This document shows, piece after piece, positions 31,962 through 60,399 of a stretch of 64,000 nucleotides of DNA. Source of the DNA: a virus; the IMG/VR virus record IMGVR_UViG_3300027747_001183; one strand, written 5' to 3'. Position numbers and translations under genes: made by a program. The notes beneath the pieces were generated by a model. It saw only the letters and a list, made by a program, of their open reading frames with translations, did no database searches and was not told the DNA's origin. Each line of letters opens with the position of its first letter. Position 1 is the first letter of the stretch.

Positions 31962-32275
31962 AAGGTGGGGGGATTCTGTTGCCAAGTTCCCCCCGAACTC
32001 CGATCAAGCCGCGAAGGCTAGATCATATGCATTGTTGTCGTTTGCATTTACGATTTTGCGTCAGTCTCGATCTCGTCTTTACTGCACCCGTCGATCCTAT
32101 TTCGCCCCCATCAAAGATACACAAATAAAACAAGTATTAGTTGCTGTTCTATTTCTTGTCACCCTACCCTAAAGCAACAATCTCGCAGGGTGTTTGTGTA
32201 TCCATGGTGGAGGCGGCGGGTACTGCCCCCGCGTCCAGCATGCCTATTCCACTAGATGTCAACGACATCAGCAAT
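31962..32275 (-). ncRNA. ssrA: Circularly permuted two-piece tmRNA, tag peptide ANDNNAYDLAFAA
   Basis: Acceptor piece ends GCGGGGGCAGTACCCGCCGCCTCCACCA (CCA ends at 32205); intervening segment; coding piece starts GGGGGCGAAATAGGATCGAC at 32109; G3.U70 pair; tag ORF 32045-32004; terminal hairpin. The 5' boundary is approximate. Confidence 0.95.
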
Positions 32276-32277
32276 TC

Positions 32278-32308
32278 TATTTATACACTACTAGACGTTA
32301 TATGTCAA
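32278..32308 (-). promoter_or_regulatory. Overlapping sigma70-type and late promoter for the tmRNA
   Basis: TTGACA-N17-TATAAA whose -10 box is also TATAAATA (32278-32285). Confidence 0.7.
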
Positions 32309-33994: not shown

Positions 33995-34181
33995 TCGTGT
34001 CTATGCCCTTAGACATCCAGTAAGCTGTGATGTCGTCTTTATTTATAGGATTAAAGCCTTGTAGAACCATCTCAGCTTTTACGTAGTCGCTTAGGTAGAC
34101 TGGACCGTCCATCTTGCCTTTCAGACTCTCCATCATCTCGTCGAACTGTTCCTTGTCGGTCTCAGTTAGCATTCGTTCCAT
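33987..34181 (-). CDS. Hypothetical protein
   Basis: Overlaps both neighbours within an operon. Confidence 0.6.
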   Translation of the reverse strand: MERMLTETDKEQFDEMMESLKGKMDGPVYLSDYVKAEMVLQGFNPINKDDITAYWMSKGIDTNG

Positions 34182-36178: not shown

Positions 36179-36207
36179 GCTACCTATTTATAGCTATCTT
36201 GAGTCTA

Positions 36208-37881: not shown

Positions 37882-38067
37882 ATGACTGATTTGGAACAGA
37901 CCCTCGAGTCTATCGAGTTTATCCAGCACAAGCTGGAACGAGACGTCGAGTGGATCCTGACGGAAAGCCTTCCCTACGAGGATGTCCGTCGCAAGGTAGT
38001 GGCAGCGCAGGTGGCCCTGAACGACCTGTATATCTACATCATGGACCAACAAAAGGAGAATGTCTAA
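37882..38067 (+). CDS. Small early hypothetical protein
   Basis: GGAG RBS; first gene of the rightward early unit. Confidence 0.7.
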   Translation: MTDLEQTLESIEFIQHKLERDVEWILTESLPYEDVRRKVVAAQVALNDLYIYIMDQQKENV

Positions 38068-38525
38068 TGATTACTTTCGCTAACTTTGCCGAAGCCACCA
38101 AGGACCTCGGTACCGCAGTAGAGCAGTCGAAGTCGGTGTACTTCATCAAGGCTGGCAAAGCTGGCCACGTGGAGTTCCACTCTAAGGATAACTACTTTGT
38201 GGCTGGTGCACGTGCTGGTAAGAACACAGCATCGGTAACTCAGGCCGCTAAAGAAGCCGGCTTCAAGGTCCTCCGCGAGCGGAAGGGCTGGACGGTGTTC
38301 GAGGGTGGATCTCTCGACGAGTACCGCAAGTTCTTCGGTGCGGTATCCTCGGCTTCGGTCTCCACTAAGACCGTCAAGATGTCCGACGTCGTCAAGCGCG
38401 TCGGTAAGGCTTTCGCCGAGAAGAAGACTGCCAAGGCAGCAGTCGACTCTGGTCTGATCAAGGCTAAGAACCTCGACACGATCAAGTCAGTAGCTGCTAA
38501 GCGCGCTGCCGCTCTGGTAGCTTAA
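38067..38525 (+). CDS. Basic Ala/Lys-rich early protein
   Basis: AAGGAG RBS and TAATG overlap; ends KRAAALVA. Confidence 0.75.
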   Translation: MITFANFAEATKDLGTAVEQSKSVYFIKAGKAGHVEFHSKDNYFVAGARAGKNTASVTQAAKEAGFKVLRERKGWTVFEGGSLDEYRKFFGAVSSASVSTKTVKMSDVVKRVGKAFAEKKTAKAAVDSGLIKAKNLDTIKSVAAKRAAALVA

Positions 38526-46416: not shown

Positions 46417-46793
46417 TTCTTTTCACCGTATGCTTGATTCAGCTGCTTGACGATACTCTTTAGATAATCAGAAGACGGCGCTGAAGCCCTTCCCTCTGCT
46501 CCGTGCATTATGTCTACCAGAGTCTCGTGTGTGTCTTTCTTCGAGTCTGCTATTACTGCTCGAATCCTAGCAGCGCTGTCTTCTATCTCAGCAGACTTCT
46601 TTTCAAACTCTTGTTTCTGCTGCTGTACTATGGCGTCCTGCTTTGCATTGAACTCTTCTGTAGCCTTGTTCCAGACTTCATGGTCGTGTATCGCAAGCCA
46701 GCTAAAGAACGCTATTCCTGCAGCCACTACTCCGCCGATGAGCCATGGGATAGAAGAACCGCCCGTGAAGAGTGCGAGTACGAATCTTATCAT
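46413..46793 (-). CDS. i-spanin (Rz-like)
   Basis: N-terminal TM segment followed by coiled coil. Confidence 0.75.
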   Translation of the reverse strand: MIRFVLALFTGGSSIPWLIGGVVAAGIAFFSWLAIHDHEVWNKATEEFNAKQDAIVQQQKQEFEKKSAEIEDSAARIRAVIADSKKDTHETLVDIMHGAEGRASAPSSDYLKSIVKQLNQAYGEKK

Positions 46794-48022
46794 GACAGAG
46801 ACAGTGCCTTGTCTCTGCGAGACTTCTGGTAGTCATCCATCTTGTCTAGGTATCCAGCATTTCTGAGATCTTTAAAGACTAGGTTACCGAAAGCAAACTC
46901 CCCATCTTTTCCAATAGAGTCGCCGCGCATGGTCTTTATCTTCTTCTTTATAGCGTCTATCGCGTCATCGTCTGCATTTGTCGATATTAAGTGATCGATC
47001 ATGTCTTTGTAGAACTGCACCTTGTCTTCTAGATGCTCGTCATTAGCAAACTCGAGTTCTAGATGCTGAGGCTCTTGAATCCATGCATTGTTTAAGATTG
47101 AGTATACTCCCTGATCCCTATGAGGAGCTTCCTGTATGTCTTGCGCGTATAGCTCTACTGGGTACCCATAGATGCTGATGTCTGGGTGAGTCAGAGTCCA
47201 TAGAATCTTCTTGTCTTGAAGGTACTCGTCTACTAGCTCACGGTCTGGGTTCATAGCGTCTCTAGATATTACGAGGTGCAGGTCTATGTCAGACATAGGT
47301 GTATAGTTGAAGTTTACGTTACCACCGGTAATGATGATGTCATGTACCATGGCGCGATCGATCTTTGCAAACTTCATCCACGTATCTGCTATCTGCATGA
47401 GTTTTCCGCGGACTTCTGTCTTTAGTCTGTTCTCTTGCCAGAGCTTCGAGTTTAGCTGGTCATGATACTCTAGACTGGTCTCTTTTAGTCCAGTCTGCGC
47501 TACGTGCTTGAGCGGCGTAAGCTTAGACCTTCTAAGAAGACCGGTAGAGTAATTCATGTTACTGCGCCTGTACTTGCGAGCAGCTTCTGGGTTGACTATC
47601 GGGATCTCGCCAGCTCTTGATCCCAGTGCGATTCCTGCGCCTGAAGTTGAGTTTGAAGGAGCGTCTTCGTATAGGTCGTAAACTTCGTTGAGTGTCTTCT
47701 GAAACTCTTCTTCTAGGTTGAAGAGCACGTTGTGTGGGTTCTGCTGGTATGACTCGTACGTCCTCGTAAGGAAGAGGGCTGCAGCGTAGCTAGCGAGCTT
47801 GCTCTTTCCACCTGGAACGAGCGCGATAAGACGCTTTAGGTTGATGACTAGGATGTCGAAGTATGTGCAGATGTTCTGCTCAGCTGGAGTAAACTGCGAC
47901 CTCTGCTTTAGGAACTTTCCGTTTCCATTTATGAGTCCTGCATGATATGCCGGCATCTCTGTGAACGGCGTCACCAGCTTCTTGATAAACTGGTATATCA
48001 TATAGATGTCCATGACTGCCAT
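46790..48022 (-). CDS. Two-domain protein with C-terminal Pol-beta-type nucleotidyltransferase
   Basis: N-domain YQFIKKLVTPF...AY..G.I...G; C-domain ITGGNVNFNYT..SDIDLH and PVELYAQD. Confidence 0.75.
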   Translation of the reverse strand: MAVMDIYMIYQFIKKLVTPFTEMPAYHAGLINGNGKFLKQRSQFTPAEQNICTYFDILVINLKRLIALVPGGKSKLASYAAALFLTRTYESYQQNPHNVLFNLEEEFQKTLNEVYDLYEDAPSNSTSGAGIALGSRAGEIPIVNPEAARKYRRSNMNYSTGLLRRSKLTPLKHVAQTGLKETSLEYHDQLNSKLWQENRLKTEVRGKLMQIADTWMKFAKIDRAMVHDIIITGGNVNFNYTPMSDIDLHLVISRDAMNPDRELVDEYLQDKKILWTLTHPDISIYGYPVELYAQDIQEAPHRDQGVYSILNNAWIQEPQHLELEFANDEHLEDKVQFYKDMIDHLISTNADDDAIDAIKKKIKTMRGDSIGKDGEFAFGNLVFKDLRNAGYLDKMDDYQKSRRDKALSLS

Positions 48023-48023
48023 C

Positions 48024-48416
48024 TTAGATGTTCCTTAGTGCTCTTACTACGTTCTGGTCGATCTCTATGTCTGAAGTAAGTATAGTCCTGTTGTCTATAC
48101 CAATGCTCTCGACACGATCTGGTAGATTATTTAATGCAATTAAGAACGGGGCTAGACACTTTTCTAGCCCTTGGCACTTAAAAAATAGCATCCGCACAGA
48201 AGCCTGTACACCAAAGAGGTTGAACAGTACTACTATATGGTTTAGAATAAGACGCTCTTTCAGGTCCCCGTCTTCGACGTACCTGTTGAGCAGTCTCTTT
48301 ATGTACTTGAATCTCTTGAGGTCCTCATAGAACTCGATAGTGTCAAAGCACTGCGGATTGTCATAGTGCTTTGCCGCGTAGAGGAGGAAGTTTGATGCGT
48401 CCAGCTTTTCAATCAT
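48024..48416 (-). CDS. Conserved T4-like hypothetical protein
   Basis: NFLLYAAKHYDNPQC...EFYEDLKRFKYIKRL..LILNH. Confidence 0.85.
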   Translation of the reverse strand: MIEKLDASNFLLYAAKHYDNPQCFDTIEFYEDLKRFKYIKRLLNRYVEDGDLKERLILNHIVVLFNLFGVQASVRMLFFKCQGLEKCLAPFLIALNNLPDRVESIGIDNRTILTSDIEIDQNVVRALRNI

Positions 48417-48417
48417 G

Positions 48418-48768
48418 TTAGAAAGCTGTCAGCGCGACTCTCTTGATGGTATTGTTTGCCGTAGCAACGTAGATGTAGTTTGAGTCGAACCAGATCTTAC
48501 CACGAGTAACAGTATCCCCAGAAGTGGAAGGGGTAGTGTTGTATATTAAAAATAGATTGTTCGCCGTAAAGTTTTGAGACGCTACAGCGTTAGCTGCAAG
48601 AGTAACTGTATTAGAGAATCTAGCGCTGACCACTACGTTAGCGTAGAAGTTAGTCAGCGTTATCTTGACTGTAGTAGGTGAGCCAGCTGGGTCATGGACT
48701 ATTGGAATCACGTCGTTTGCAGATATATAACTTATTGCGTTTAGTCCAGTTATCTTAGTCGCAGTCAT
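48418..48768 (-). CDS. Small structural/fibre-like protein
   Basis: KIT.L N-terminus; G.IWFDSNYIYVATANN..KRVAL C-terminus. Confidence 0.7.
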   Translation of the reverse strand: MTATKITGLNAISYISANDVIPIVHDPAGSPTTVKITLTNFYANVVVSARFSNTVTLAANAVASQNFTANNLFLIYNTTPSTSGDTVTRGKIWFDSNYIYVATANNTIKRVALTAF

Positions 48769-48790
48769 GCTGGCTCACCTTTACTCGTTA

Positions 48791-49804
48791 TTATGCGTCT
48801 GGGAAGACGTTGTCGTCGTTAGCGTCGCCGGAGATCGAACCCATAGCTACGAGAGTCTCGTAGGTTACGCGTCCTGCGCGGCCGCCGGTGCCTATGGTCC
48901 TCTTTATCCAACCAGCATGAGTACTTGTATGCACGCCGGAAAGGAAAGGTACCGCAGCTGCAGTCACACCGGTAATTGAGTGTCCAGTCTCAGAAACACT
49001 CGCAGTAAGGTCGATGTTAGCGCCACCGCTAGTTGCTGCTAGAGCGATAGTGGTAGTGTTTGCAAACGAGACGTAGTAGCTGGTGTTGTTAGCAAGACCG
49101 CCGACGGCTGTGTTGCCTGTAGCAACTAGATAAGTTAGGCGATCACCGACTGCCCATGTAGTGTTGGCAGTAGAGATCGAGATGGTGTCGTTTGTGTTCG
49201 ATACTGCAGTCAGAGCGTTGAAAGTGATCGCAGTAGGTGCCGAGATAGATAGCGTAGGAGGAGTCAAGAAGCCTGCGCCGTTGTTGGCGAACAGGATCGC
49301 GTCTACCTTACCTGCAGTCACGTGAGCGTTTCCAGATACCGCCACCGTGTTGCCAGTGCCGCCGGTAAATGTAGCAGTAGCATTTGCAGTGTAGCCAGTA
49401 CCGTAGCTGGTGAATGTTACTTCACGTACGGCACCATTAGCTACAGAAGCCTCAGTCGTGTCTAGGCCGTATACAGTGTTTGAGTAGTTGTCGTACAGGT
49501 CAGAAGCATACGCCGCGTTGGAATTGTAGTTTGCGTCCATCACGTAGAACCTAGGCTTCTCGCTGAGAACGTATGCTGCGTTTGCCTGTGCAGTAACAGT
49601 AGTATTCTGGTACTGTCCGACTACCTGAGCAGCCGTGTTTGAAGTGATCGAGCGGATCATGTAGTCGTTGTTGGCCATAAGAATGAAGTCGCCAACCTTT
49701 GCTTCTGTCTGAAATGATGTCGATGTTCCGTTGACAAAGCCGTTCGAACTGATGTTCGCGTAGCCAGAAGCTGTCTTGGAATCTGCATTGCCCCAAAGTG
49801 CCAT
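48791..49804 (-). CDS. Virion structural protein (MALWG family)
   Basis: MALWG start; HAGW..R..G.GGRAGRV..ETLVAM end. Confidence 0.75.
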   Translation of the reverse strand: MALWGNADSKTASGYANISSNGFVNGTSTSFQTEAKVGDFILMANNDYMIRSITSNTAAQVVGQYQNTTVTAQANAAYVLSEKPRFYVMDANYNSNAAYASDLYDNYSNTVYGLDTTEASVANGAVREVTFTSYGTGYTANATATFTGGTGNTVAVSGNAHVTAGKVDAILFANNGAGFLTPPTLSISAPTAITFNALTAVSNTNDTISISTANTTWAVGDRLTYLVATGNTAVGGLANNTSYYVSFANTTTIALAATSGGANIDLTASVSETGHSITGVTAAAVPFLSGVHTSTHAGWIKRTIGTGGRAGRVTYETLVAMGSISGDANDDNVFPDA

Positions 49805-49805
49805 T

Positions 49806-50291
49806 TTATTTTTCCTCTCCTATAAGGTCTTTAAGATACCCAGATAATTTGTAAAGAATATGCTCACTCTTGATGTGACTAGGTCTGATAGTATCTTTAT
49901 TTATATTCTTGCCGACAGTAGGAGCTGGAAATGCCTTTTCTACTACTTCTGGAAGCGTCTTCAGCTCATTCTTCTTTTGCTTTATGGTCTTTTCAGTCAG
50001 AGAATCTCTAATGTCTGCAAAAGATGTACCTTCTTCAGGCTCGATTGTGGCTACTTCGTTCTTTACTATCAGTCTGCTCTGCTGCTTTATCTCAGTATCA
50101 TGAACTGAGTTTCTCAGATCTGCAAAGGAGACTCCCTCATCTTTTACCTGTTCTTCTACTTTATTTACTACGAGTCTAGACGTCTGCTTTACCACTGTGT
50201 CCGTGACAGACCTGCGCAGGTCTGCAAACGAGACTCCCTCTTCTCTTTCTGAATCTTCAGTCTTGGTGACTTGGTTCTTTACAAGAAGCAT
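49806..50291 (-). CDS. Hypothetical protein with three ~35-aa repeats
   Basis: EG(V/T)SFAD(L/I)R..V....KQ three times; TAATG overlap with dps. Confidence 0.7.
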   Translation of the reverse strand: MLLVKNQVTKTEDSEREEGVSFADLRRSVTDTVVKQTSRLVVNKVEEQVKDEGVSFADLRNSVHDTEIKQQSRLIVKNEVATIEPEEGTSFADIRDSLTEKTIKQKKNELKTLPEVVEKAFPAPTVGKNINKDTIRPSHIKSEHILYKLSGYLKDLIGEEK

Positions 50292-50725
50292 TACTTGCTC
50301 GTAGCCCTCAGCATCCAACCATGCTTCTTGTGAATATCAGTACGGTCTTGAAGGAAGTTCGACAGCCCGATCTCGCCTGCAGCCTCGGCCGCATCGTATG
50401 CGGTCTTGATGGCTGCAAGTAGAATATTATTATCTGCTAGAGCCATCTTGATCATCTCCGGAGCTGGGATCGGCTCCACCTGATCTTTAATCTTGGTCAT
50501 GTCTAGATAGCGGCTGAGTGAGCCGGGTGCGTACCCCTCGATGGCCCTGATATGCTCAGCGATTGCGTCGTGCGCTTCCCATACCTCGTTGTATAGGGTA
50601 TCTAGGAAACCATGATACTGAGGAAAGTCAGACCCCTCGATGTTCCAGTGAAAGAAGTGCAGCTTTAGGTAAAACGAGAAGTTCGTCGCTAGGTATACTT
50701 TCATAGCGTCCATTAGGTTAGCCAT
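50291..50725 (-). CDS. dps: Dps / ferritin-like protein
   Basis: HFFHWNIEG..F..YH; D.IAEHIR; H.KHGWMLR. Confidence 0.93.
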   Translation of the reverse strand: MANLMDAMKVYLATNFSFYLKLHFFHWNIEGSDFPQYHGFLDTLYNEVWEAHDAIAEHIRAIEGYAPGSLSRYLDMTKIKDQVEPIPAPEMIKMALADNNILLAAIKTAYDAAEAAGEIGLSNFLQDRTDIHKKHGWMLRATSK

Positions 50726-50765
50726 TATGCCCCTCCAGCTGACTTAGTGTACAATATATTAATCA

Positions 50766-51107
50766 TTAGCAGTTCCACTTTCTTAGTGCTTTATTGATTC
50801 TTGAGTCCGGGTCATGTGCTGTCTTAGAAGAAGTCAGTCTCTTCTTCATCCCACCCATGCGCGCGCAGAATGACTTGCGGCGATTGGCTGCCTTAGAGCC
50901 CTTCTTAAGCTTCGACGGCTTAGTAGTAACTGGTGCCTTGAGGTGGCTTCCAGTAGTATGGTTGTAGTGGTCGCGACCCTTCTGAGTCAGCCCACCAGTA
51001 GAGCTCTTGAAACCCTTGGAGTCTACTGCAGCCTCGTCGATCGACGATTGAATGCAGGTGCATCCCTCTCCACAACCCACTTCTCTAAATTCTCTGAAAG
51101 TCTTCAT
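50766..51107 (-). CDS. Basic putative internal head protein
   Basis: MKTFREFRE N-terminus; GGLTQKGR; RRKSFCARM; SRINKALRKWNC. Confidence 0.75.
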   Translation of the reverse strand: MKTFREFREVGCGEGCTCIQSSIDEAAVDSKGFKSSTGGLTQKGRDHYNHTTGSHLKAPVTTKPSKLKKGSKAANRRKSFCARMGGMKKRLTSSKTAHDPDSRINKALRKWNC

Positions 51108-51328
51108 GGCCTTAGCTCCGGATACTTTTTATGAAGCTCTTCTTTAGGAAGCTCATGAATGTCTTTCCACATGTTAGCTTCTTTTTTAGTCTTAGTCGAG
51201 CGTATGTGTCTGCCGTTCTCATCGTGAACGTGCCATTCAGTATCGCCTGTAGTATTCCCGCGATAGCTCACGTTCTTAGTGATTACGGCTTTCTTTTCTT
51301 CACCCATGAATTCTTTGAAAGTCTTCAT
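51104..51328 (-). CDS. Small putative internal head protein
   Basis: MKTFKEFMGEE N-terminus. Confidence 0.7.
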   Translation of the reverse strand: MKTFKEFMGEEKKAVITKNVSYRGNTTGDTEWHVHDENGRHIRSTKTKKEANMWKDIHELPKEELHKKYPELRP

Positions 51329-53190
51329 TGTGAGTCCTTAAAGTCTTTATTAGTAGGGGCGCCCTTGGAACCCGGCTTTCTCATGTGCTCGCCAGAACCA
51401 TTCTTGATTCTCTTGCGCTTTGCCCAGATGTTGTCCCATAGACCGCGCTTTTCCTGTACTACTTCTTCTTTCATATTCTCGTGGCATGCACCGCAGTTCA
51501 TGCCCTTCTTCTCTACCGGAGCACCACACTCCGGACACTTGTACATCTTCTTGTCTTCTTTTAATTTTGCACGAACAGCTTTCTGAGCGCCATCGAGCGT
51601 CCTATACTTTACCGGGTCACGATCATTACCGTGCATTATTGTATATGATTTGCTGTCTCCACCGTAATGAATTGAAGAATCGCCAGTGTGATGCCTCCAC
51701 ATTCCTGGTCTAACGAGTTTAAATTCTTCTTCATCCCATTTTGGTGCTTTTGCTTCAGTCCTAACGTTATCTTCTTTCATACCAATGCCAGGAGGTACTT
51801 TATCAACGTCAGGAAGCACATAAGGTCCTGGTTTTTTTATACCTGCAGCTTTTCTGACAGCATTTTTTACTGTGTTATAAGCAGCTTTAGATTTGTATGG
51901 AACATTATCTATTTCATGGCGTCTATGTACAGCACCAACTAATCGTGGCGAGAGTTCAAATAGTTGTTCAAAATCTTCATTAGTTTTCTTTTTAATTGCA
52001 TCATATGCAGCAGAATTTTTTTCCATCTCTTGGCGATATTTGTCGCTAGAGTTAGGCTCTACGCCTTTTGCTTTCATAGCTTTTTTAATTTTAGAAGCAG
52101 CAGAAACATATCCTTTACCGTATTTTTCATCAATAACTTTCTTTACGATTGATTGCTGACGATATGGTCTATCATCTTTTTTACGATCTTTATCATTACG
52201 AACAGTTAAATCGATAGTGTGTCTATCTTGACCTGAGCGAGGTACCGCCTCGCGGTGCTTTCCAAACTTCTCACCGGGAGTATCACCCCTGTATGTCTTG
52301 GTAAGTGAAGTAGTACCCCACTCGCGCTTGCTTGTGTCTGCTCTATTGTAAGCTTCTTCTATCGCGTCGAGTAGACTGTGGGTGTCGTCTGTGTCGATCA
52401 TCATGGCAGCACTGAAGAGGTCGTCTATGTCTTCCTTTACCTTCTTCTTGCTTGCCTTGTTGATGTCGCTCATCATCTCTTCGGCGTGCTTGTGAAGCTC
52501 AGTCGGAAGACCCGACTTGAACGCGGAGATGTTTCCATTCTTTGCATGCTCGCGCATCTTGGTGCCAGAAATACCCTTTGTACCTTCAGCGTCTGGGTCG
52601 CGATCGATCTTCTTTACTGTAATAGACTTAAAGTTGTAGTGGATCTTACCGCTCTTATCCGGCTTTCCGTTGTACCTATGAAGCAGCTTCTCATATTCAT
52701 CAGCCCTGTCAGCTCCAGCCACGACAACTAAGTGGTGGGCGTGTCTGTTAAGCCTAGCAGCAGTATCTATGATGCTGGGGGCTTCCCTAGAAGTGGATGA
52801 AACGTGAGTACTAGGTAAAGCTACTTTCTTTAGGTACTCAACTTTCTTTGACGTTGGAATCGGATTCTTTTCGTCTTCCTCAGAGTGTGATGTCACGACG
52901 TGTGCAGAACCACCGACTCTCTTGGCCTCGGCTTCTACCGCCCTGATGACCTTTACGTGACCCTTGTGGACCGGCTGCGCCCTCATGTTAAGGTTGGTCA
53001 CGGCAGTGTGCTCTGCGGCTTCCTGTACTGGGTTCATCTCGATCTTGTCGATAGGTGACCCAGTCATGGCAACTCCGCCCTTGACGATCTCATCGTTGAC
53101 CTTGGTGTTCTTAAGTCTCTTCTTCGAGACTCCGACCTTGTTCTCGTCGGCTGCAGTAGTGTTGCTCGTGGTATTATTGGTCTCTGCCAT
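51325..53190 (-). CDS. HxGH nucleotidyltransferase (cytidylyltransferase/NMNAT-like) with modular C-terminal tail
   Basis: RAQPVHKGH; KNP; VVAGADR; RDPDAEG..GISGTKMR. Confidence 0.8.
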   Translation of the reverse strand: MAETNNTTSNTTAADENKVGVSKKRLKNTKVNDEIVKGGVAMTGSPIDKIEMNPVQEAAEHTAVTNLNMRAQPVHKGHVKVIRAVEAEAKRVGGSAHVVTSHSEEDEKNPIPTSKKVEYLKKVALPSTHVSSTSREAPSIIDTAARLNRHAHHLVVVAGADRADEYEKLLHRYNGKPDKSGKIHYNFKSITVKKIDRDPDAEGTKGISGTKMREHAKNGNISAFKSGLPTELHKHAEEMMSDINKASKKKVKEDIDDLFSAAMMIDTDDTHSLLDAIEEAYNRADTSKREWGTTSLTKTYRGDTPGEKFGKHREAVPRSGQDRHTIDLTVRNDKDRKKDDRPYRQQSIVKKVIDEKYGKGYVSAASKIKKAMKAKGVEPNSSDKYRQEMEKNSAAYDAIKKKTNEDFEQLFELSPRLVGAVHRRHEIDNVPYKSKAAYNTVKNAVRKAAGIKKPGPYVLPDVDKVPPGIGMKEDNVRTEAKAPKWDEEEFKLVRPGMWRHHTGDSSIHYGGDSKSYTIMHGNDRDPVKYRTLDGAQKAVRAKLKEDKKMYKCPECGAPVEKKGMNCGACHENMKEEVVQEKRGLWDNIWAKRKRIKNGSGEHMRKPGSKGAPTNKDFKDSQ

Positions 53191-53211
53191 CTGAATCTCT
53201 TCTTTTATTTT

Positions 53212-53219
53212 TATTTATA
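53212..53219 (-). promoter_or_regulatory. T4-type late promoter
   Basis: TATAAATA 21 nt upstream of the 53190 start. Confidence 0.7.
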
Positions 53220-53850
53220 AAGGCTTCATTACTGTGTCTGCACCAGATCGAGCGACTACGTGGTACTCAAAGTCGGCTAGGTAGTTGATAGGACCAGCAT
53301 GCGCGTTCTCGCATATGATGACTGGCTTATGCTTCTTGATACTATTTATTAGACCCATGAGTGCAAAGTGCTCTCCGCCCTCGATGTCTAGATATATCAA
53401 GTCCAGCTTCTCGTACTCAAAGGTGTCTCCACGCATCATTATAGAGTCACCGCCGTACGTCCTCTCGAAGGCTACGCTTCCAGTCCCGCGGTTATTGTTT
53501 GCTGGGTGGTTGAACGTGCACCACTTGTTCTCGTTCCCGAGTGCAGCATTGAACTTGATGATCCTCTTAGACTCACAGTTCTGCGCTAGGCAGAAGAAGT
53601 TTACTGGGTCCGGCTCAAACGTCACTACTCTCTCAAAGATGTCAGACAGCAGTCTCGGGTACATACCCGCCCCTCCGCCTGCCTGTATGACGGTATGTCG
53701 TGACTTGCAATGGTCGAGTATGATGTCCCTTATAGCTCCCCACTCTTGACTCGGGCCTGCCCACAGACCTGAGTCTTCCCACGGCCATACCCAGTCCCCT
53801 ACGCCGTCTATAGTACGCGCTTCTATCTTAGTCTCGAAACCTGGCTTCAT
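53215..53850 (-). CDS. FkbM-family SAM-dependent methyltransferase
   Basis: VIQAGG.AG; TFEPDP.NF; NAALG; LDIEGGE; PVIICE. Confidence 0.88.
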   Translation of the reverse strand: MKPGFETKIEARTIDGVGDWVWPWEDSGLWAGPSQEWGAIRDIILDHCKSRHTVIQAGGGAGMYPRLLSDIFERVVTFEPDPVNFFCLAQNCESKRIIKFNAALGNENKWCTFNHPANNNRGTGSVAFERTYGGDSIMMRGDTFEYEKLDLIYLDIEGGEHFALMGLINSIKKHKPVIICENAHAGPINYLADFEYHVVARSGADTVMKPL

Positions 53851-54968
53851 GCTACTACTCCTCTAGACTTTGGTATCTTAGAGTCTGCAGATGATACGCA
53901 CGACTTAGATATGCATACCGTAGGCTTATCAAACAGCTTGAAGCCAGTCTCTATGTTTCCGAGCGGCTTGTCCGAGCAGCTGTAGCTTCTCTTGATGTTG
54001 CCGTCTGGTTCTCTGATAACGATGCTCTGGTAACCGGAGTTACAGGACCAACCTTTGAACTGGTTGAAGTTGAAAGCATTGAATCTTTCAGCCTGATCCA
54101 TATACCACTTTTTACCCGTGTTATCTTCAAGCTCGACATTGAACTGCTGAGGAACATTTGCGCCATCCTTTTCTAGGTCTAGTATAGGCTCTAAGTCTAT
54201 CGGCCTGATTATCTTTGTCTTTGACTCCGTATACGCTCTCTGGGGCATGCCGTTATGGAGCTTAGACATCATCTCTTCTGTATATCCAGAGACTACGTAG
54301 GAAGCCTTTGGGTCTGACTGAGGCTTGAGCGTGACATTGATTCCACGGTCGTGAAAGTACAGCGCTTCTTCATAGAGCATGTCAAACCACTCTGGAACCA
54401 TTACCATGTTGATAGTAACGCTTACGCCGTATGTCTGTAGAAACTCAAGCTTGTCTGCAAATAGAGACATCTTCTCCGGAGTGTTGATGTACTCACGGTG
54501 ATAGCTAGCCGTGATCATTGCCTTGCTGAACTTTACAGATAAGTCCACATACTTCTGAAACCACTTCATGTTCTGAGACAGATTAGTAGTCATATGTATC
54601 GAAGTGTAGTTTGTATTTTGAACGTCGTCTGCTAGGTGCTGAAGTATGTCCAGATAGCCTGGATGAAAAGTAGGCTCTCCACCACTAAGGCTAAAGTGAA
54701 AGCTGTTGAATCCATTTTCCCTCGCTTGTCTCTTTATCTCGTCTACAGTTCTAAGGCATAGCTCTGTCGGTCTATGATCTTTCTGTTGACTGTGAGCATA
54801 CGGCCAGCAGTATGAGCAGTTGTAGTTGCAGAATCTTCCTAGAATCCAGCTTACTGTAAACATGTCGCGATAGAGCATAGACATCTGGCCGATCTTTACT
54901 ATTCGGTCAAACGGTATCTTAGAGAAGTCGTAGCTGCTTAGTTCAAGTTCATTCATGCCACATGTCAC
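53847..54968 (-). CDS. Radical SAM protein with C-terminal Cys cluster
   Basis: CNYNCSYC; SGGEPT; C-terminal WSC..YSC..C...C. Confidence 0.9.
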   Translation of the reverse strand: MTCGMNELELSSYDFSKIPFDRIVKIGQMSMLYRDMFTVSWILGRFCNYNCSYCWPYAHSQQKDHRPTELCLRTVDEIKRQARENGFNSFHFSLSGGEPTFHPGYLDILQHLADDVQNTNYTSIHMTTNLSQNMKWFQKYVDLSVKFSKAMITASYHREYINTPEKMSLFADKLEFLQTYGVSVTINMVMVPEWFDMLYEEALYFHDRGINVTLKPQSDPKASYVVSGYTEEMMSKLHNGMPQRAYTESKTKIIRPIDLEPILDLEKDGANVPQQFNVELEDNTGKKWYMDQAERFNAFNFNQFKGWSCNSGYQSIVIREPDGNIKRSYSCSDKPLGNIETGFKLFDKPTVCISKSCVSSADSKIPKSRGVVA

Positions 54969-55515
54969 CCTGCATCGGGTCGATGCTTAACTCATTGATG
55001 TTTAAGTGTCTAGGTTGTTCTATAACCCACTTAATATATAAAGCGATCTCGTCTATAGGTATACACTTTCTAGTAGGGTGCTTTTCTTGATTGTTTGACA
55101 GCGTACCAAAGCTTATGTAAGAAACCTTACAAGGGGGTGCAGAAGACCAAACGGACGATCTAGTTATATCGTTGCTCAGGTCCCTTAGTGCCCTCTTCTC
55201 AGAACCGTATAGCCATACTCTACCACCGGCAACCCTGTCTATAGTACTACCAATGTTTATTATGTGGGTCTCAGCGTTCCACTCCATGCACTTAGCGTAC
55301 ATTTCCTGCAGCATCAGCGTCTGGTTAAAGTTATGAAGCGCGGAGTTGTTTATAAACACGTCATGCTGGCACGCTTCCTGCGCTACCCTCTCGCGATCTT
55401 TCTTAGTCGTAAGATCGTATCCGCTGCTCTTACTAAAGAAAGTAGCTTCAGGGTATATCTTGTATATAGAAGCTGCGAGACCTTTCTTTGGATTACCAGT
55501 CAAACATAGTTTCAT
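54949..55515 (-). CDS. Short-chain dehydrogenase/reductase-like protein
   Basis: LTGNPKKGLA; FINNS; INIGS; YGSEK (YxxxK). Confidence 0.8.
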   Translation of the reverse strand: MKLCLTGNPKKGLAASIYKIYPEATFFSKSSGYDLTTKKDRERVAQEACQHDVFINNSALHNFNQTLMLQEMYAKCMEWNAETHIINIGSTIDRVAGGRVWLYGSEKRALRDLSNDITRSSVWSSAPPCKVSYISFGTLSNNQEKHPTRKCIPIDEIALYIKWVIEQPRHLNINELSIDPMQGDMWHE

Positions 55516-56221
55516 ATCTTAATCCATTATCTATTAGTAGCTTCTTGTGAAATTCTCTATATGAGTCTATATCAGATAGTCTAAATTCAACGCCAAACAT
55601 ATCTTCTAGTTCGTGCACATATCTATAGCCGTTCTCAAATAGAAGTCTATCCATGTAGACTATAGTCTCATTATTCATGTACTCAGGAGATCGATTCCTA
55701 TAGAAACTATATACAGACGTATTATTATAGTGATCGAGTGCTTTCTTCTTTAGTAAGAACTTATATATCTTCTCGTTGTCGCGATTGTCTATGTCAAGCG
55801 CTATGTTTATAGACCCGGGAAATATATCATGCAGTGGAAGAAAAAGCTGGTTTCCATACGTATGGTGAGTGTTAAAGACTGCGAGAGTCTCTCTGAGATG
55901 ATTCATCTGGCCACGAAGATCGTCTACTATGTTTCTCTTGAATTGAGTCTCTTCATTGTCAAATACTATCTCAAAGTACTTTATCTGCCTTCTTGCAAAC
56001 AGCGTATTTTCATTAAAAAAGTGAGCCCTGTAAAGCTCACTTCTCCAGAGTCCAACTATTATGTCTAGATTCTTTACGCCATGAGAAGAGGTAATACCCG
56101 GAGTAGTATACGTGGTAGTCAGACCCTCGGATATGACCATATCATTTCTCATTATAAGATTAGCTAGAAAGTCACCACCATAGGAGTGTGGATAGTTTAT
56201 AGTAATGAGCTTATCGAACAT
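55493..56221 (-). CDS. Low-GC hypothetical protein
   Basis: ITINYPHSYGGDFLANLI motif shared with 42187-42984. Confidence 0.65.
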   Translation of the reverse strand: MFDKLITINYPHSYGGDFLANLIMRNDMVISEGLTTTYTTPGITSSHGVKNLDIIVGLWRSELYRAHFFNENTLFARRQIKYFEIVFDNEETQFKRNIVDDLRGQMNHLRETLAVFNTHHTYGNQLFLPLHDIFPGSINIALDIDNRDNEKIYKFLLKKKALDHYNNTSVYSFYRNRSPEYMNNETIVYMDRLLFENGYRYVHELEDMFGVEFRLSDIDSYREFHKKLLIDNGLRYETMFDW

Positions 56222-57360
56222 TACTCCGGCTTCTTGAACCTCGTGTTATTCAAGATAGCGTTTGATACTTTCTTGGGTACTAGCTTCGCGATAGGACGAT
56301 TATTCCTCTGTAGAACTATTCCCTCACCCGGCGACTTCTTACCGTCGATGCTGGTGTGCATGTCTGGATGCTCTACACCCCTGAGTACGTGCTCAGTAGC
56401 CTGCTCAAGGTGGTGATGGATATCGAGCGACCTCTGGAAGTGATGGGCGTGCTTGTCGACGTGCGCAATGAGGGCAGCGTGCTCGGCTACTTTTCTCTCT
56501 TTTGCAGCAGGAGTCTTTACCTTGCTAGCAGCCTTGGCACCCTCGCTCTCTAGGTGCTTCTTGTATCCCTCGACAGACGGCGTCTCACCCTTGCGAGTGG
56601 TACGGTTAATGTAGGTAGCGAAGTGAACTTGATGCTCTGGAGTCAGGTGATGGGACGTATGACCGGCCAGCAGAGCCTTGGCCGCGTTTAGGTGGTGTTC
56701 AGTAGCAGCCCTGTCTTTCTCAGAGTAGGTGCTCGGATCTGGATGGTACTCGTGCTCAGGAGTAAAGATCTTAGAAGACTTCTTGGTAGCACCCTTTGAG
56801 AGCGCCTGAGCCTTTCCACCCTTGTACTCAGTATGGAGTGCAACTCCGAGAGGAGCCCTAGTCCTAGCCTTGTACGTGATCCTGTTAGGGGTCATCGAGG
56901 TGTTCTCACCGCTCTTCTTAGTCTCATCTGAAGGTGTATACAGCATGTCGCCCTGTACGTGGTGACCCCTGTTGACTACCTCGTGTCCGTGCGCAAGTAC
57001 GTGCTTGAGTGCGGCCGCGTAGCCCGGTGCGTGCCCGAAGTGCTTGTCGACTTCTTCTGGAGTACGAGCGACTACACCCCTAGCAAACCTGTGCTTATCA
57101 GACACCGCCACGCCGTGCTCGTCGTGGATGATGTGAATGGAAGCTCCGCCGTCGGTCTTCAGCGAGGCCTTGATCGGACTGGACTTACCCATCCTAGAAT
57201 TATGGAACTGACGGATCAAGTCGTGTCCTAGGTTGGCGTGCTCCGGAGACTCGTGAGCTATAGCTTTAGCGTGAGTAAGGTGACCGAGCTGCTCAGTATC
57301 GATCGAAGTTCCTACAGCTTTAGTCTTGGCTTCTGTGATGAATGATGCGAATGTTAACAT
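56221..57360 (-). CDS. His-rich RNA-ligase-like nucleotidyltransferase, putative internal protein
   Basis: MLTFASFITE N-terminus; ligase motifs I KTDG, III QGD, IV EGIVL, V AK. Confidence 0.65.
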   Translation of the reverse strand: MLTFASFITEAKTKAVGTSIDTEQLGHLTHAKAIAHESPEHANLGHDLIRQFHNSRMGKSSPIKASLKTDGGASIHIIHDEHGVAVSDKHRFARGVVARTPEEVDKHFGHAPGYAAALKHVLAHGHEVVNRGHHVQGDMLYTPSDETKKSGENTSMTPNRITYKARTRAPLGVALHTEYKGGKAQALSKGATKKSSKIFTPEHEYHPDPSTYSEKDRAATEHHLNAAKALLAGHTSHHLTPEHQVHFATYINRTTRKGETPSVEGYKKHLESEGAKAASKVKTPAAKERKVAEHAALIAHVDKHAHHFQRSLDIHHHLEQATEHVLRGVEHPDMHTSIDGKKSPGEGIVLQRNNRPIAKLVPKKVSNAILNNTRFKKPE

Positions 57361-57361
57361 G

Positions 57362-58336
57362 TTAATTCTTTGTCTCGTAGTCCATCTTTACATTGCCTGG
57401 ACGATTTTCGTCGCTTTTTTTCTTGTTTTTCTTGCCTTTTGGAAGTGCAATTCTAGGTATTCCTACCTTGATCGGCTGATTGTTAGTCTCAGTATCGTGG
57501 ATGTGCGGTGCCTGACCAGCAATAGTAGTTACTAGGTGAGTAGCAGTACCAGTCTCACCGTGGCCAAACTTACCGTGACCAGTGGCAGCCTCGTGCGCTA
57601 CGTGCTGTAGTAGACCCGGGTGCTTCTCATGTATATCATTCATGTGCTGCTGAGCTTCGTCTCTCAGCCTATGCAATTCATTCCTGTCATTAGTATACTG
57701 CATGGCATTTAGATTTGACTGGATCTTTTCTACGTGACCCATCACTTCTCTATGATGCTGAGCAGTAAATCCCCTGTTAGCTTTTGCGTGCTGAGCAAGT
57801 GCGTGGGAATACGTAGCACGAAATTCATTTGGCTCTGCCGACATCAGCTGCGAATCACCCTTCTTAAGCGAAATTGATATTCTCTCTTTGGGGTTTTTCG
57901 GGTGAGACAGCACTATGTCTGCCTTAGATGTCTTATTTGTTGCACCAGAACTCTTCCACGTATCAGAAAGTTTTCCTGTTTCTCTACCAGCCACATGAGC
58001 CTGATACTTCTGAGCTACTGCCTTTTTGAAAGAAGGATGATTGGCCATGCCGTGCACTGCATGAGCAGCGTGACGTAGCTCATTGTAGTATGCAGCTTCA
58101 TGTTCTGGCTTCTTTCCGCCAGTAAATCCGTCCTGGGCGTTTGCAAAGTTTAGTGGATGATTCTTGTCTTTCTTTGCAGCCTCTATCTCTCTGTGAAGGT
58201 GCTCTGGACTGGATAGTAGTCTAGAAGCTTCTGGGTGTTTTACTGCATGGTTCCACAGTGATGACAGTGCATATTCGTCACTGTATCCAGACTTAGTAGC
58301 TTCTTGTAGGGATTGGTAGTCGCTGAAGGTTAGCAT
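57362..58336 (-). CDS. His-rich putative internal protein, PD-(D/E)XK-like
   Basis: MLTFSDYQSLQE N-terminus; TSKADIVL...ISLKK. Confidence 0.55.
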   Translation of the reverse strand: MLTFSDYQSLQEATKSGYSDEYALSSLWNHAVKHPEASRLLSSPEHLHREIEAAKKDKNHPLNFANAQDGFTGGKKPEHEAAYYNELRHAAHAVHGMANHPSFKKAVAQKYQAHVAGRETGKLSDTWKSSGATNKTSKADIVLSHPKNPKERISISLKKGDSQLMSAEPNEFRATYSHALAQHAKANRGFTAQHHREVMGHVEKIQSNLNAMQYTNDRNELHRLRDEAQQHMNDIHEKHPGLLQHVAHEAATGHGKFGHGETGTATHLVTTIAGQAPHIHDTETNNQPIKVGIPRIALPKGKKNKKKSDENRPGNVKMDYETKN

Positions 58337-58356: not shown

Positions 58357-59745
58357 TTATTTATTAAATATGCTCTGCATCTCTGGGAATGTTTCGTAGA
58401 AGCTGTTGCCTCGAGTCTTGTCGCAGAGCTCTAGGAACTCTTTCATCTCAGGAAGTCGTACAGACCAGTCTTCAGACTCCATGAACTGCACCATTCCCAT
58501 GAGCCTGTCGATCCCGTACTCAGCCCTGCGCCAGTTGTCGTAGCTGACCTTACCGCCGGCCATCTTCTCCCAGTTCTCTTCTAGCCAAGGGATAAACTCC
58601 TCGTACTTCTTTCTGACCTCGGCCTTGAACCACTTGGGTAGCACTTTTACGTTGAGGTGCGCCGGATAGTAGACAAAGTGGAAGCTGACCATTCCGCCGC
58701 CGTGTGGCCATACATTGATCTTCTTGAAGTTCTGCTCAACCTTCCACTTGATAAAGTCAGGTATGTAGAAAATGTTGAGCGCCTGCACTGCACATGCGAT
58801 CGTCACCTCGACATTGTCTGTCGTCTGGGTATCTAGTATGCGCATGACTTCGGCTGTGCGTTGCCACTTAGACGGGTATCTAATGTATTCGTTGCGCTCA
58901 AAGACATCGTCTACCGAATAGTGAAAGCGTACGAACTTAAAATGAGACCAGAGCTCAAACAGGTCTTCTCTCCACTCAACGCCGTTTGAGTTGTAGCGCA
59001 GCTCTAGGTTCTTAGCATACCCAAGCTCTATACACTTCTCTAATATGTCGTAGTGCTCTTCGATAATGAGGCTCTCGCCACCGGCAAAGTATATCTGCTG
59101 CATGTTGGGTATCTGGTCATAGAACTGCTCCCAGAACTTTGGGTTGTTCTTGTGCCAGTTATACGAAGAACCATTATTGCTTCCTTTGTTATCCCACTTA
59201 GAATTCTCTCTTAGATTGGCGTTCTTGATCTGAGGGAATATCTCTTTCCATTCTTTTAACCAACCGGAGCTATCGTGAGGGCTGCACATTACGCATGCCA
59301 GCTGACACTTAGTTCCAAAGCGAAGGTCGATGTATGGAAGATATGGAGGAACTGTACCATCCCATTCAGTGTTTTCTATGAGCTTATCTACGTCTACTCT
59401 CTGAGACCAATATGCGGTCTCCCACATTCTCTTGCTCTTATGTCCAGCTGCTTCTTCTTTGAAGCACTTTATGCAGCTTAGAGGTTTCTCTCCGTCAAGC
59501 ATCTGAGTGCGAACGTTCTTCATGTACTTCGAGTTCCAACTCGAGAGTAGGTCAGAAACGTTTAGGTTATTAGGCTTGCCATCATCAGTCTTTAATATGC
59601 CAACCTGACCACCCTTGCTGCTGTCTTGAGTTGGGCCTACACCAGATGCATTAGCAGTACAGCAAACGCGCATGGATCCATCTGGGCGAGTGCTCAGATG
59701 GATCCATGGCAGTATGCACCAAGTATCTGATGGTGGGTTGTTCAC
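58357..59745 (-). CDS. Radical SAM protein with N-terminal Twitch/SPASM-like Cys domain
   Basis: CILPW..CC; CIKC; CQLACVMC; GGES; YIRYPSKW. Confidence 0.9.
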   Translation of the reverse strand: MNNPPSDTWCILPWIHLSTRPDGSMRVCCTANASGVGPTQDSSKGGQVGILKTDDGKPNNLNVSDLLSSWNSKYMKNVRTQMLDGEKPLSCIKCFKEEAAGHKSKRMWETAYWSQRVDVDKLIENTEWDGTVPPYLPYIDLRFGTKCQLACVMCSPHDSSGWLKEWKEIFPQIKNANLRENSKWDNKGSNNGSSYNWHKNNPKFWEQFYDQIPNMQQIYFAGGESLIIEEHYDILEKCIELGYAKNLELRYNSNGVEWREDLFELWSHFKFVRFHYSVDDVFERNEYIRYPSKWQRTAEVMRILDTQTTDNVEVTIACAVQALNIFYIPDFIKWKVEQNFKKINVWPHGGGMVSFHFVYYPAHLNVKVLPKWFKAEVRKKYEEFIPWLEENWEKMAGGKVSYDNWRRAEYGIDRLMGMVQFMESEDWSVRLPEMKEFLELCDKTRGNSFYETFPEMQSIFNK

Positions 59746-60399
59746 TTAGAACTTTACAGTGAACGAGCCAGTTACAGAGTCACCGGTAGTGACGTACGCA
59801 GAGTCGAAGCTCCGAGCGATCTTTGCAGATACGCTGTACGCAGGGGTGATGTCGTACGTAATGCCGGTTGAGAGCTGGTGGCTCTGGTAGCTGTACGTAG
59901 AAGCGTCGATCGCGTTGCGGAAGCGGTACCCAACGGCGTTGATCGTTAGGCCGTTGCCTACTGCGTAGTCAGCGTTACCGTACGCTGCGTAGTATGGGAA
60001 GTTACCCGAGTCTACGAAGCGCTCACCGACGCCGACTTTACCAGAAAGCGTAATGCCGTAGACTGCTGGAAGTGCGTATCCAGCCTGTACTTCAAGGTTC
60101 TGCTTGAGGTTTGCGCCGGAAACCTGAGTCGTAGCGGCTAGACCGCCGACCGAGAATCCTGCACCGAGGCTGTGCTTGTAAGATACCTGATACGCGTCGT
60201 CTACCTTTGCGCCGAAGTTGGTGCCGAGGTCTTGACCGTACTGCACTGAAAGACTGTCGGCTGAAGCAGGAGCAGCAGGTGCTGCAGCTACTGGAGCTGG
60301 AGTCGGCAGTGGAGCCTTCTTCTTGTTTGGCAAGTCAGTTGCGAAAGCGCTGGTAGCAAGCAGTGCTGCAGCCGCAGTCGTGATAAGTAGCTTATTCAT
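59746..60399 (-). CDS. Outer-membrane beta-barrel protein (Rhizobiales Omp/porin-like)
   Basis: Signal peptide; DLP.KKAP Pro/Ala linker; alternating beta strands; terminal Phe. Confidence 0.8.
   Translation of the reverse strand: MNKLLITTAAAALLATSAFATDLPNKKKAPLPTPAPVAAAPAAPASADSLSVQYGQDLGTNFGAKVDDAYQVSYKHSLGAGFSVGGLAATTQVSGANLKQNLEVQAGYALPAVYGITLSGKVGVGERFVDSGNFPYYAAYGNADYAVGNGLTINAVGYRFRNAIDASTYSYQSHQLSTGITYDITPAYSVSAKIARSFDSAYVTTGDSVTGSFTVKF

Follow-up and report, generated by a model that had tools for sequence, protein, structure and literature searches.

The proteins that a phage packages with its genome are its only tools before its first gene is expressed, and those pre-packaged by bacteriophage T4 are small anti-restriction or DNA-binding proteins, plus Alt. 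The T4 internal proteins are basic, Lys-rich DNA binders, and IPI* is an inhibitor, not an enzyme (PMC3012670). Alt is an enzyme borne in the T4-type head, trimmed by gp21 and delivered with the DNA (PMC9026906, PMC3012670). Engineered fusions to the T4 capsid-targeting sequence (CTS) carry foreign enzymes, a nuclease included, into T4 heads (PMC3012670, PMC9026906), the leader alone being enough to bring a nuclease in beside the DNA, and a CTS-nuclease fusion can sit harmlessly inside the head until cations are supplied (PMC3012670). Work from the Black laboratory has shown that positions 4 and 7 of the CTS matter in targeting and positions 8 and 10 in processing (PMC9026906). Here we analysed a 64,000-nucleotide stretch of viral DNA (IMG/VR record IMGVR_UViG_3300027747_001183; hereafter, the window), in which a group of genes encodes basic proteins, nearly all of them beginning with a leader of this kind. 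Our analysis suggests that these genes form the internal-protein locus of a distant T4-like myovirus, with cargo that has real enzyme folds, a reading that we consider likely though by no means settled. The genes concerned, with the leaders of the two larger leader-tagged proteins, are as follows.

56221-57360, minus strand: leader-tagged DUF6267 protein (Pfam DUF6267, 3.3e-30), ligase-like, 379 residues, isoelectric point (pI) 9.6, 10.6% His

57331-57360, minus strand: leader of the ligase-like protein, 10 residues, ending I-T-E before Ala

57362-58336, minus strand: leader-tagged basic protein with a predicted MspI/HinP1I-type restriction-endonuclease fold, 324 residues, pI 9.5, 9% His

58301-58336, minus strand: leader of this nuclease-like protein, 12 residues, ending L-Q-E before Ala

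51325-53190, minus strand: basic HxGH nucleotidyltransferase, leaderless here, 621 residues, pI 9.5, 13% Lys

51104-51328, minus strand: basic leader protein, 74 residues, pI 9.3, its first seven residues identical to those of T4 IPI

50766-51107, minus strand: very basic leader and DUF6321 protein (Pfam DUF6321, 6.2e-23), 113 residues, pI 10.1

38067-38525, plus strand: candidate fifth cargo gene, 152 residues, pI 10.1, with a leader ending F-A-E before Ala

The initial annotation had pointed to shared capsid-leader N-termini on four genes, and we read these N-termini in the same way: they stand on four minus-strand genes with starts at 51107, 51328, 57360 and 58336. Scanning every ATG in the window added the fifth, at 38067-38525. 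All five genes carry an N-terminal leader (about 10-19 residues) of the M-K-T-(Y/F)-x-E-F type, in which residues 4 and 7 are hydrophobic or aromatic. Among 82 N-termini, five such leaders were seen where 0.05 would be expected (Poisson P of about 3e-9, roughly 100-fold enrichment); the pattern was defined post hoc, after the data had been seen, though the margin is large. As a comparison set we read T4 ipI, ipII and ipIII from NC_000866. Besides the gene that shares its first seven residues with IPI, the leader of 50766-51107 differs from that of IPI by one conservative change, and the leader of the ligase-like protein follows the IPII/IPIII pattern, in that residues 4 and 7 are aromatic, residue 8 is Ile, and a Glu at 10 precedes Ala. 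The comparison supports the view that the leader is, in its form, a T4-type capsid-targeting sequence.

Homologs of the two larger leader-tagged proteins (138 for DUF6267, 61 for the nuclease-like protein) suggest how the leader is used. In the alignments of both families the leader varies in length and sequence (about 10-35 residues in the nuclease-like homologs, 10 to about 130 in the DUF6267 homologs), while a hydrophobic-x-Glu junction, followed by a small residue, stays constant. This site lies directly ahead of the core in all 58 anchored nuclease-like homologs, and ahead of the core in 91 of the 97 anchored DUF6267 homologs. Some DUF6267 homologs have N-terminal extensions of 50-130 residues in which the leader comes first and the same junction last, immediately ahead of the core; the cyanophage DUF6267 proteins (S-PM2, S-MbCM7, S-SM1) are leaderless and begin directly at the core. 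In the AlphaFold2 (AF2) models of both window proteins, the leaders have a predicted local distance difference test (pLDDT) score below 50 and the cores one above 90. We regard the leader as a detachable module because of these leaderless cyanophage orthologs, its variable length, the constant junction and the low pLDDT. A junction kept at the boundary of a folded domain, behind leaders of arbitrary length, looks like the signature of a prohead-protease processing site. The gp21-type site, (L/I)-x-E followed by a small residue, is canonical in the ligase-like and nuclease-like proteins and takes a looser M/F-x-E form in the three small proteins. A short motif resembling Arg-Arg-Ser-Gly-Ser-Ser-Ala-Gly-Gly-Asp also turns up repeatedly in DUF6267 proteins and DUF6267-HxGH fusions (P0057, P0062, P0068-P0074 and others), both in C-terminal tails and in long extensions at the N-terminus, and may be a second targeting or processing signal.

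Composition and gene order set these genes apart as well. The HxGH protein and the five proteins that bear a leader fall at pI values of 9.3-10.1 and contain 10-16% Lys; the leaderless radical-SAM, SDR, methyltransferase, Dps, RNR and Pol-beta proteins have pI values of 4.8-7.7. The His content is extreme, at 9.0% of the nuclease-like and 10.6% of the ligase-like protein against 1-5% of the leaderless enzymes encoded nearby. Where the ligase-like protein of a relative is 78-100% identical, the genes follow the same arrangement (ligase-like, HxGH, small protein, DUF6321 protein); relatives at about 65% identity (L009, G001) lack a separate gene for the small protein. With T4 IPI, IPII and IPIII the candidate cargo shares the form and part of the sequence of the leader, the hydrophobic-x-Glu before Ala and the basic character of the mature proteins, and the locus shares with the T4 internal-protein genes a variable cargo behind a constant leader and a plastic organization with late promoters. 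In contrast to the T4 internal proteins, the cargo here includes large enzyme-fold proteins (312-369 mature residues) instead of small inhibitors or DNA-binding proteins, the relationship of the phage to the T-evens is very remote, and leaders reach 50-130 residues in homologs. The closest enzymatic precedents differ too: Alt is an ADP-ribosyltransferase, and the CTS fusions that bear enzymes or GFP (staphylococcal nuclease, EcoRI) are man-made where nucleases are concerned. Our literature search turned up no natural leader-tagged restriction-type nuclease or ligase-type enzyme.

The head genes of this phage lie outside the window, and we used relatives from IMG/VR for the head module. One of these, a 142.9-kb contig (G001) whose ligase-like protein is 64% identical to that of the window, encodes a Peptidase_S77 prohead protease (4e-34) in a head module of T4 order: portal, small open reading frames (ORFs), protease, scaffold and major capsid protein. 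Its leader-bearing ORFs include one between portal and protease, the HxGH protein and a 391-residue protein that ends in DUF6321.

Evidence from virions comes from cyanophage S-SM1, for which Sullivan et al. (2010; PMC3037559) detected 41 proteins by mass spectrometry of purified particles. The set includes the T4-GC190 cytidylyltransferase (25 peptide counts) and T4-GCs 1453, 1454 and 1455; in the S-SM1 record (NC_015282), T4-GC190, 1453, 1454 and 1455 are SSM1_190, SSM1_188, SSM1_191 and SSM1_192, which flank the DUF6267 gene (L025, 3447-8333). SSM1_190, the HxGH protein, and SSM1_192 begin with a T4-type leader. In a scan of the whole 174-kb genome these were the only genuine leader ORFs, two other pattern matches being a signal peptide and an internal Met, and S-SM1 encodes a gp21-type prohead protease. 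Both leader proteins were detected in virions, as were SSM1_188 and SSM1_191. S-SM1 resembles the window in its homologous HxGH nucleotidyltransferase, in the neighbourhood around the DUF6267 gene and in the leader on SSM1_190 and SSM1_192; it differs in that its DUF6267 protein is leaderless, and the paper lists the proteins as structural with no mention of a leader or an internal location. Cyanophages therefore seem to have a T4-style internal-protein locus.

The AF2 model of the ligase-like protein has a pLDDT of 90.6, with low confidence at residues 1-16. In a VIA-align comparison the twelve best rows were all RNA or DNA ligases, with Z-scores of 6.5-9.3 over 148-185 residues: NgrRnl scored 9.3 (185 residues aligned), T4 Rnl2 7.6, REL1 7.4, T4 Rnl1 7.2 and DNA ligases about 7. 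Foldseek placed archaeal DNA ligases first, with probabilities of 0.97-0.98. The ligase motifs, reported in the initial annotation in their expected order, proved also to be invariant columns: in an alignment of 42 DUF6267 sequences K68, D70, G71, Q136, E346, G347, V349 and K359 are invariant or nearly so, giving motif I (K68-x-D70-G71), motif IV (E346-G347) and motif V (K359), and these motifs are kept in the cyanophage orthologs too. In the model these motifs lie on a loop between strands and on two adjacent strands. Only one Lys of motif V is invariant, a helical insert of about 110 residues separates motifs III and IV, and the model has neither an OB domain nor, beyond motif V, the C-terminal domain specific to Rnl enzymes. 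The ligase families of Pfam, NCBIfam and PHROG gave no match at E-values up to 0.1, and sequence and profile searches of the PDB gave nothing useful for this protein or for the nuclease-like one, so that the fold comparison alone was informative.

On its predicted fold and its motifs, DUF6267 belongs to the ligase/capping (covalent nucleotidyltransferase) superfamily and not to Rnl1/Rnl2. The comparison with those two families that had been proposed at the outset gave the ligase fold and no match to either family; membership of the Rnl1/Rnl2 sequence families is ruled out, there being no profile match and no family C-terminal domain. DUF6267 resembles the covalent nucleotidyltransferase ligases (NgrRnl/Rnl5, T4 Rnl2, T4 Rnl1, REL1) in the fold of the adenylyltransferase domain and in having motifs I, IV and V on adjacent strands. 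Unlike them, it gives no ligase match at the sequence level, has the helical insert, lacks the OB or Rnl-specific C-terminal domain and is often fused to an HxGH nucleotidyltransferase. Self-adenylylation and strand joining are predicted activities only. No paper on DUF6267 or DUF6321 turned up in our literature search.

The nuclease-like protein looks like a four-base-cutter restriction enzyme in its AF2 model (pLDDT 91.9; residues 1-14 below 50). VIA-align gave MspI a Z-score of 10.1 (215 of 262 residues), HinP1I 8.8 and HhaI 6.1, the next unrelated chain scoring 5.4, and the top three matches in Foldseek were the same enzymes in the same order; a PD-(D/E)XK-like protein had been suspected here, and the MspI/HinP1I fold bears this out. 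Within the family D140, S156, K158, G160 and Q163 are invariant and the N-terminal E21 nearly so. Set against the usual catalytic Asp ... (Asp/Glu/Gln/Asn)-x-Lys, the pattern D140 ... S156-x-K158 is invariant with an atypical Ser in the middle; MspI and HinP1I have Asn or Gln at that position. The monomeric type IIP enzymes MspI, HinP1I and HhaI share with the window protein the fold over 190-215 residues, the conserved Asp...x-Lys strand pair and the Glu of the N-terminal helix. The phage protein is unlike them in its 6-14% identity, the Ser in the second motif, its basic, His-rich composition and its capsid-targeting leader, and in that no methyltransferase partner was identified for it. We refer to its nuclease activity as putative.

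The cyanophage genes adjoining DUF6267 (S-MbCM7_152, S-PM2d140) had been suspected by eye to be homologs, and hhalign gave no support; a 408-residue protein of G001 whose D-I-V...I-S-L-K pattern looks similar did not come up in a search with the family hidden Markov model. SSM1_188 shows only suggestive homology to the window nuclease (E-value of 0.007 against 1312 ORFs) and is a weak candidate. Immediately upstream of the ligase-like gene lies a slot whose gene differs between relatives; some of the occupants are leader-tagged and nuclease-like by motif only. Three of these slot genes, none with a family match, are the following.

L005, 5413-6408: His-rich leader protein of 331 residues with a D...E-x-K pattern

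L008, 3712-4443: protein of 243 residues with a D...E-x-K pattern

L007, 954-1388: leader protein of 144 residues

The resemblance of the L005 and L008 proteins to PD-(D/E)XK enzymes is one of motif only. From this turnover in gene content, the position looks like a hyperplastic cargo slot.

The third enzyme, 51325-53190, has its HxGH domain at about residues 60-260, together with a long basic region, a zinc ribbon and a conserved tail at the C-terminus. Its assignment as an HxGH nucleotidyltransferase in the initial annotation is confirmed by both motifs, H-K-G-H at residues 74-77 and one of the I-S-x-T-x-x-R type, and by matches to PHROG cytidyltransferase families (PHROG 3041, 3.6e-44; PHROG 395, 7.9e-29). 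Pfam CTP_transf_like scored 19.8 bits against a cut-off of 21 bits, and lay above the cut-off in the orthologs of G001, S-PM2 and S-SM1. The domain is 37% identical to the T4-GC190 protein of S-MbCM7 (4e-32), and the protein is 29% identical to the C-terminal domain of S-PM2d138, a DUF6267 fusion. Models of nicotinamide mononucleotide (NMN) adenylyltransferase (NMNAT) gave E-values of 0.004-0.0065, far below their cut-offs (PHROG 3462, E-value 0.0038; NCBIfam PRK01153, 16 bits against a cut-off of 127). Matches so far under the cut-offs do not identify the protein as an NMN adenylyltransferase, and the proposal that it resupplies nicotinamide adenine dinucleotide (NAD) is speculative.

HxGH and DUF6267 domains occur in one polypeptide in S-PM2, in many homologs from the window clade (with the leader at the N-terminus) and in several BFVD entries. 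That they are separate genes here and one leader-tagged polypeptide in many relatives argues for a single functional unit of the ligase-type and HxGH proteins. Because the two domains are constantly paired and often fused, they may serve a single nucleotide-activating and nucleotide-transferring pathway acting on nucleic-acid ends, perhaps by sealing or by end-adenylylation. The HxGH protein of G001 (L022, 11412-13295) has the leader and, after the nucleotidyltransferase domain, a Walker-A P-loop that is absent from the window protein; its sole match is a sub-threshold one to Zeta_toxin, and if it were a polynucleotide-kinase-like domain, an end-healing role would be favoured.

A late promoter had been placed at position 53212, and an exact T4-type octamer is found there; a second, similar element precedes the nuclease gene.

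53212-53219, minus strand: T4-type late promoter TATAAATA, exact match, 21 nt upstream of the ATG at 53190 (HxGH gene)

58358-58365, minus strand: late-promoter-like octamer AATAAATA, differing from the T4 late consensus at one position, 21 nt ahead of the nuclease start

The octamer TATAAATA occurs 12 times in the window, against 1.7 copies expected, mostly before baseplate genes. That AATAAATA acts as a late promoter we infer from its sequence and position only.

Not all the enzymes of the region share equally in this evidence. The initial annotation had taken four enzymes to be packaged in the capsid: the leaders of the nuclease-like and ligase-like proteins speak for these two, and the Pol-beta-type protein encoded nearby (46790-48022) drops out. 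For the HxGH protein the link to the cargo is indirect, and consists of the fusions, the leader-bearing orthologs, a homolog in a virion proteome, the basic composition and the late promoter. Packaging in this phage is well supported by comparison; packaging itself, cleavage, ejection and all of the substrates we infer from the analysis as a whole.

Several observations weigh against an internal-protein locus with enzymatic cargo. The HxGH protein of the window has no leader, and three leaders end in M-G-E, F-R-E or F-A-E rather than in the canonical L/I-x-E. The fold Z-scores of the ligase-like and nuclease-like proteins (9-10) are moderate, and a Ser at the second catalytic position of the nuclease motif is unusual. 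DUF6321 is found also in podoviruses lacking a gp21-type system, so that the domain on its own does not mark head proteins. The surroundings of 38067-38525 showed no late promoter, and this gene is the weakest member of the cargo set. Finally, the leaderless DUF6267 protein of S-SM1 (T4-GC 71) is not among the virion proteins in 40 of the 41 rows of the published table; its absence from those rows fits leader-dependent loading, but suggests that virions of some lineages do without the ligase-like protein.

Based on this comparison we can propose how such a locus might work. The leader would bind the scaffolding core, so that the protein is built into the prohead, where a gp21-type prohead protease would cut after the hydrophobic-x-Glu site. 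The mature basic, His- and Lys-rich proteins would remain among the packaged DNA and be carried into the host along with it, and the cargo could then work in the opening seconds of infection, ahead of all phage gene expression. Host DNA that lacks modification would be the target of the nuclease, and phage nucleic acid would be protected or mended by the pair of ligase and nucleotidyltransferase. Such an attack on host DNA at entry is plausible because the nuclease resembles a restriction enzyme and because CTS-nuclease fusions are harmless in the head until cations are supplied. That the cargo is used for nucleic-acid cutting, together with end-sealing or end-adenylylation, at the start of infection is a tentative suggestion, and one on the doubtful side of even.

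Other readings of the same genes need to be weighed against an internal-protein locus with enzymatic cargo. An injected kit for RNA repair and NAD resupply, directed against anticodon nucleases and NAD-depleting defences, strikes us as improbable. The best structural neighbours of the ligase-like protein are RNA ligases (NgrRnl, T4 Rnl2, REL1), DUF6267 is without an OB domain, as RNA ligases are, the phage carries a transfer-messenger RNA (tmRNA) and tRNAs, and the HxGH superfamily includes NMNAT; on the other hand, DNA ligases score nearly as high and come first in Foldseek, the NMNAT models stay far under their cut-offs and no polynucleotide kinase was found within the window. The partner nuclease, moreover, has its closest resemblance to DNA restriction enzymes, so that DNA is indicated no less than RNA, and PADLOC matched no relatives of defence systems. 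RNA repair, end-tailing and NAD resupply, the roles first put forward for these enzymes, are speculation.

A more conventional view would make these proteins ordinary cytoplasmic enzymes of replication or repair, their shared N-terminus being a feature of translation efficiency or of a recombination cassette. The conserved order of nuclease-like, ligase-like and HxGH genes, like that of a metabolic operon, would suit this view, as would the near-identical 5' DNA of two leader genes, such as a duplicated cassette would leave, and the leaderless cyanophage DUF6267 proteins, with the S-SM1 copy absent from the table rows cited above. Yet a translation signal needs no hydrophobic-x-Glu junction exactly before the core behind leaders of variable length; the leader coincides with the functional positions of the T4 CTS and tracks basic pI, and in S-SM1 it marks proteins detected in the virion. 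We consider a cytoplasmic role improbable as well.

That the proteins are packaged but serve as structural or DNA-condensing components, or as a decoy or inhibitor like T4 IPI*, their enzyme folds exapted and catalytically silent, is the least probable of these readings. In its favour, the very high Lys and His content and basic pI recall DNA-binding internal proteins, a Ser occupies the place of the usual Asp, Glu, Gln or Asn in the nuclease motif, a single Lys is invariant in motif V of the ligase-like protein, and IPI* itself is no enzyme. Against it, the residues that stay invariant across 30-90% identity are Lys-x-Asp-Gly of motif I, Glu-Gly of motif IV and the Lys of motif V; the nuclease keeps its Asp...Ser-x-Lys strand pair and N-terminal Glu, and the same positions are kept in leaderless cyanophage orthologs. 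Such invariance of catalytic-type residues fits retained chemistry better than a scaffold role.

Returning to a locus of internal proteins with enzymatic cargo, its wider meaning would be that environmentally abundant T4-like phages use the same label as T4 to deliver proper enzymes, among them a nuclease of restriction-enzyme type and the ligase-like DUF6267 protein, whose family has no assigned function. In its boldest form, which we regard as unlikely as a whole, T4-superfamily phages beyond the T-evens (among them cyanophages and abundant lineages from fresh and marine waters) would use the leader as a general address label for exchangeable head-loaded enzymes; the set described here would be an injected cut-and-seal kit, in which the nuclease destroys competing elements or host DNA without modification, the ligase unit preserves the phage genome or essential RNAs from damage, and different families succeed one another in the nuclease slot in the course of an arms race. 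The analysis offers a testable function for two Pfam domains of unknown function and for the "cytidylyltransferase" that has been an unexplained cyanophage virion protein since 2010, and a sequence rule, leader plus hydrophobic-x-Glu, for predicting ejected proteins in metagenomes. Natural leaders and cargos could also extend T4-style protein-delivery vectors.

The small leader proteins deserve separate mention. The 74-residue protein (51104-51328) has no family match and is present as a 100% identical copy in L008. Its gene and that of the DUF6321 protein (50766-51107), whose first 21 nt are nearly identical, both follow the HxGH gene without a gap. The DUF6321 domain forms the end of longer leader-bearing proteins in G001 (391 residues) and L009. 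It occurs in more than 500 cyanophage and pelagiphage records, podoviruses included, and in ACG-2014f (L024, 514-3324) it is the C-terminus of a 936-residue Lys/Glu-rich protein encoded two genes upstream of the large terminase gene. The gene at 38067-38525, also without a family match, has a strong Shine-Dalgarno site and a start that overlaps the upstream stop as TAATG.

Two further features lie among or beside the cargo genes.

46790-48022, minus strand: two-domain protein with a C-terminal Pol-beta-type nucleotidyltransferase domain, 410 residues, pI 5.9, leaderless

53215-56221, minus strand: four-gene island (FkbM methyltransferase, radical SAM, SDR-like, unknown), not cargo, with leaderless, acidic to neutral products

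The Pol-beta-type domain was recognized correctly in the initial annotation: it has G-G-x13-D-x-D and a third carboxylate, a motif invariant in 27 homologs, with little or no variation at G58, D70, D72 and E115 of the domain. PF01909 gave no match at E-values up to 0.1, although Atlas neighbours carry it, and a PDB profile search gave weak matches, six of eight to Pol-beta nucleotidyltransferases (DrrA, MNT, aminoglycoside nucleotidyltransferase; best E-value 0.026). As a cargo member the protein was rejected, being acidic and leaderless and sharing none of the links of the other genes. The island sits between the ligase-like and HxGH genes and is an insertion, because it is missing there from the more distant relatives (L009, L010, L011/G001). 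Together, 53215-56221 and 58357-59745 contain two radical-SAM genes, one of the twitch-domain type (NF033640, 4e-124), along with the other genes of the island, which may serve DNA or glycan tailoring.

The window as a whole is DNA of a T4-like myovirus, with baseplate genes (gp6, gp7, gp5 and gp48 types) occupying 6-23 kb. No record in the phage collection exceeds 43% identity to the gp6 homolog, whose closest relatives are T4-like phages of Stenotrophomonas, Rhizobium, Caulobacter and Sinorhizobium, with 35-39% identity to T4-like phages of Alphaproteobacteria. A megablast search of the region against 50,697 phage records gave no match. Two tRNAs accompany the following gene, whose type hints at a host among the Alphaproteobacteria.

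31964-32312: permuted alphaproteobacterial-type tmRNA (Rfam RF01849, 136 bits; RF04321, 108 bits)

Further exact copies of TATAAATA lie at 49898-49905, 36185-36192, 34040-34047 and 32278-32285, among others. Several precede genes of unknown function, which are, by their promoters, probably late or structural; the octamer-preceded gene at 48791-49804 has weak tail and head-closure similarity. Lastly, a 217-residue phage protein encoded at 59746-60399, which matches no PHROGs family, has a signal peptide, a beta-barrel-like character and a porin/Omp25-like composition, and is conserved in L008 and L013.

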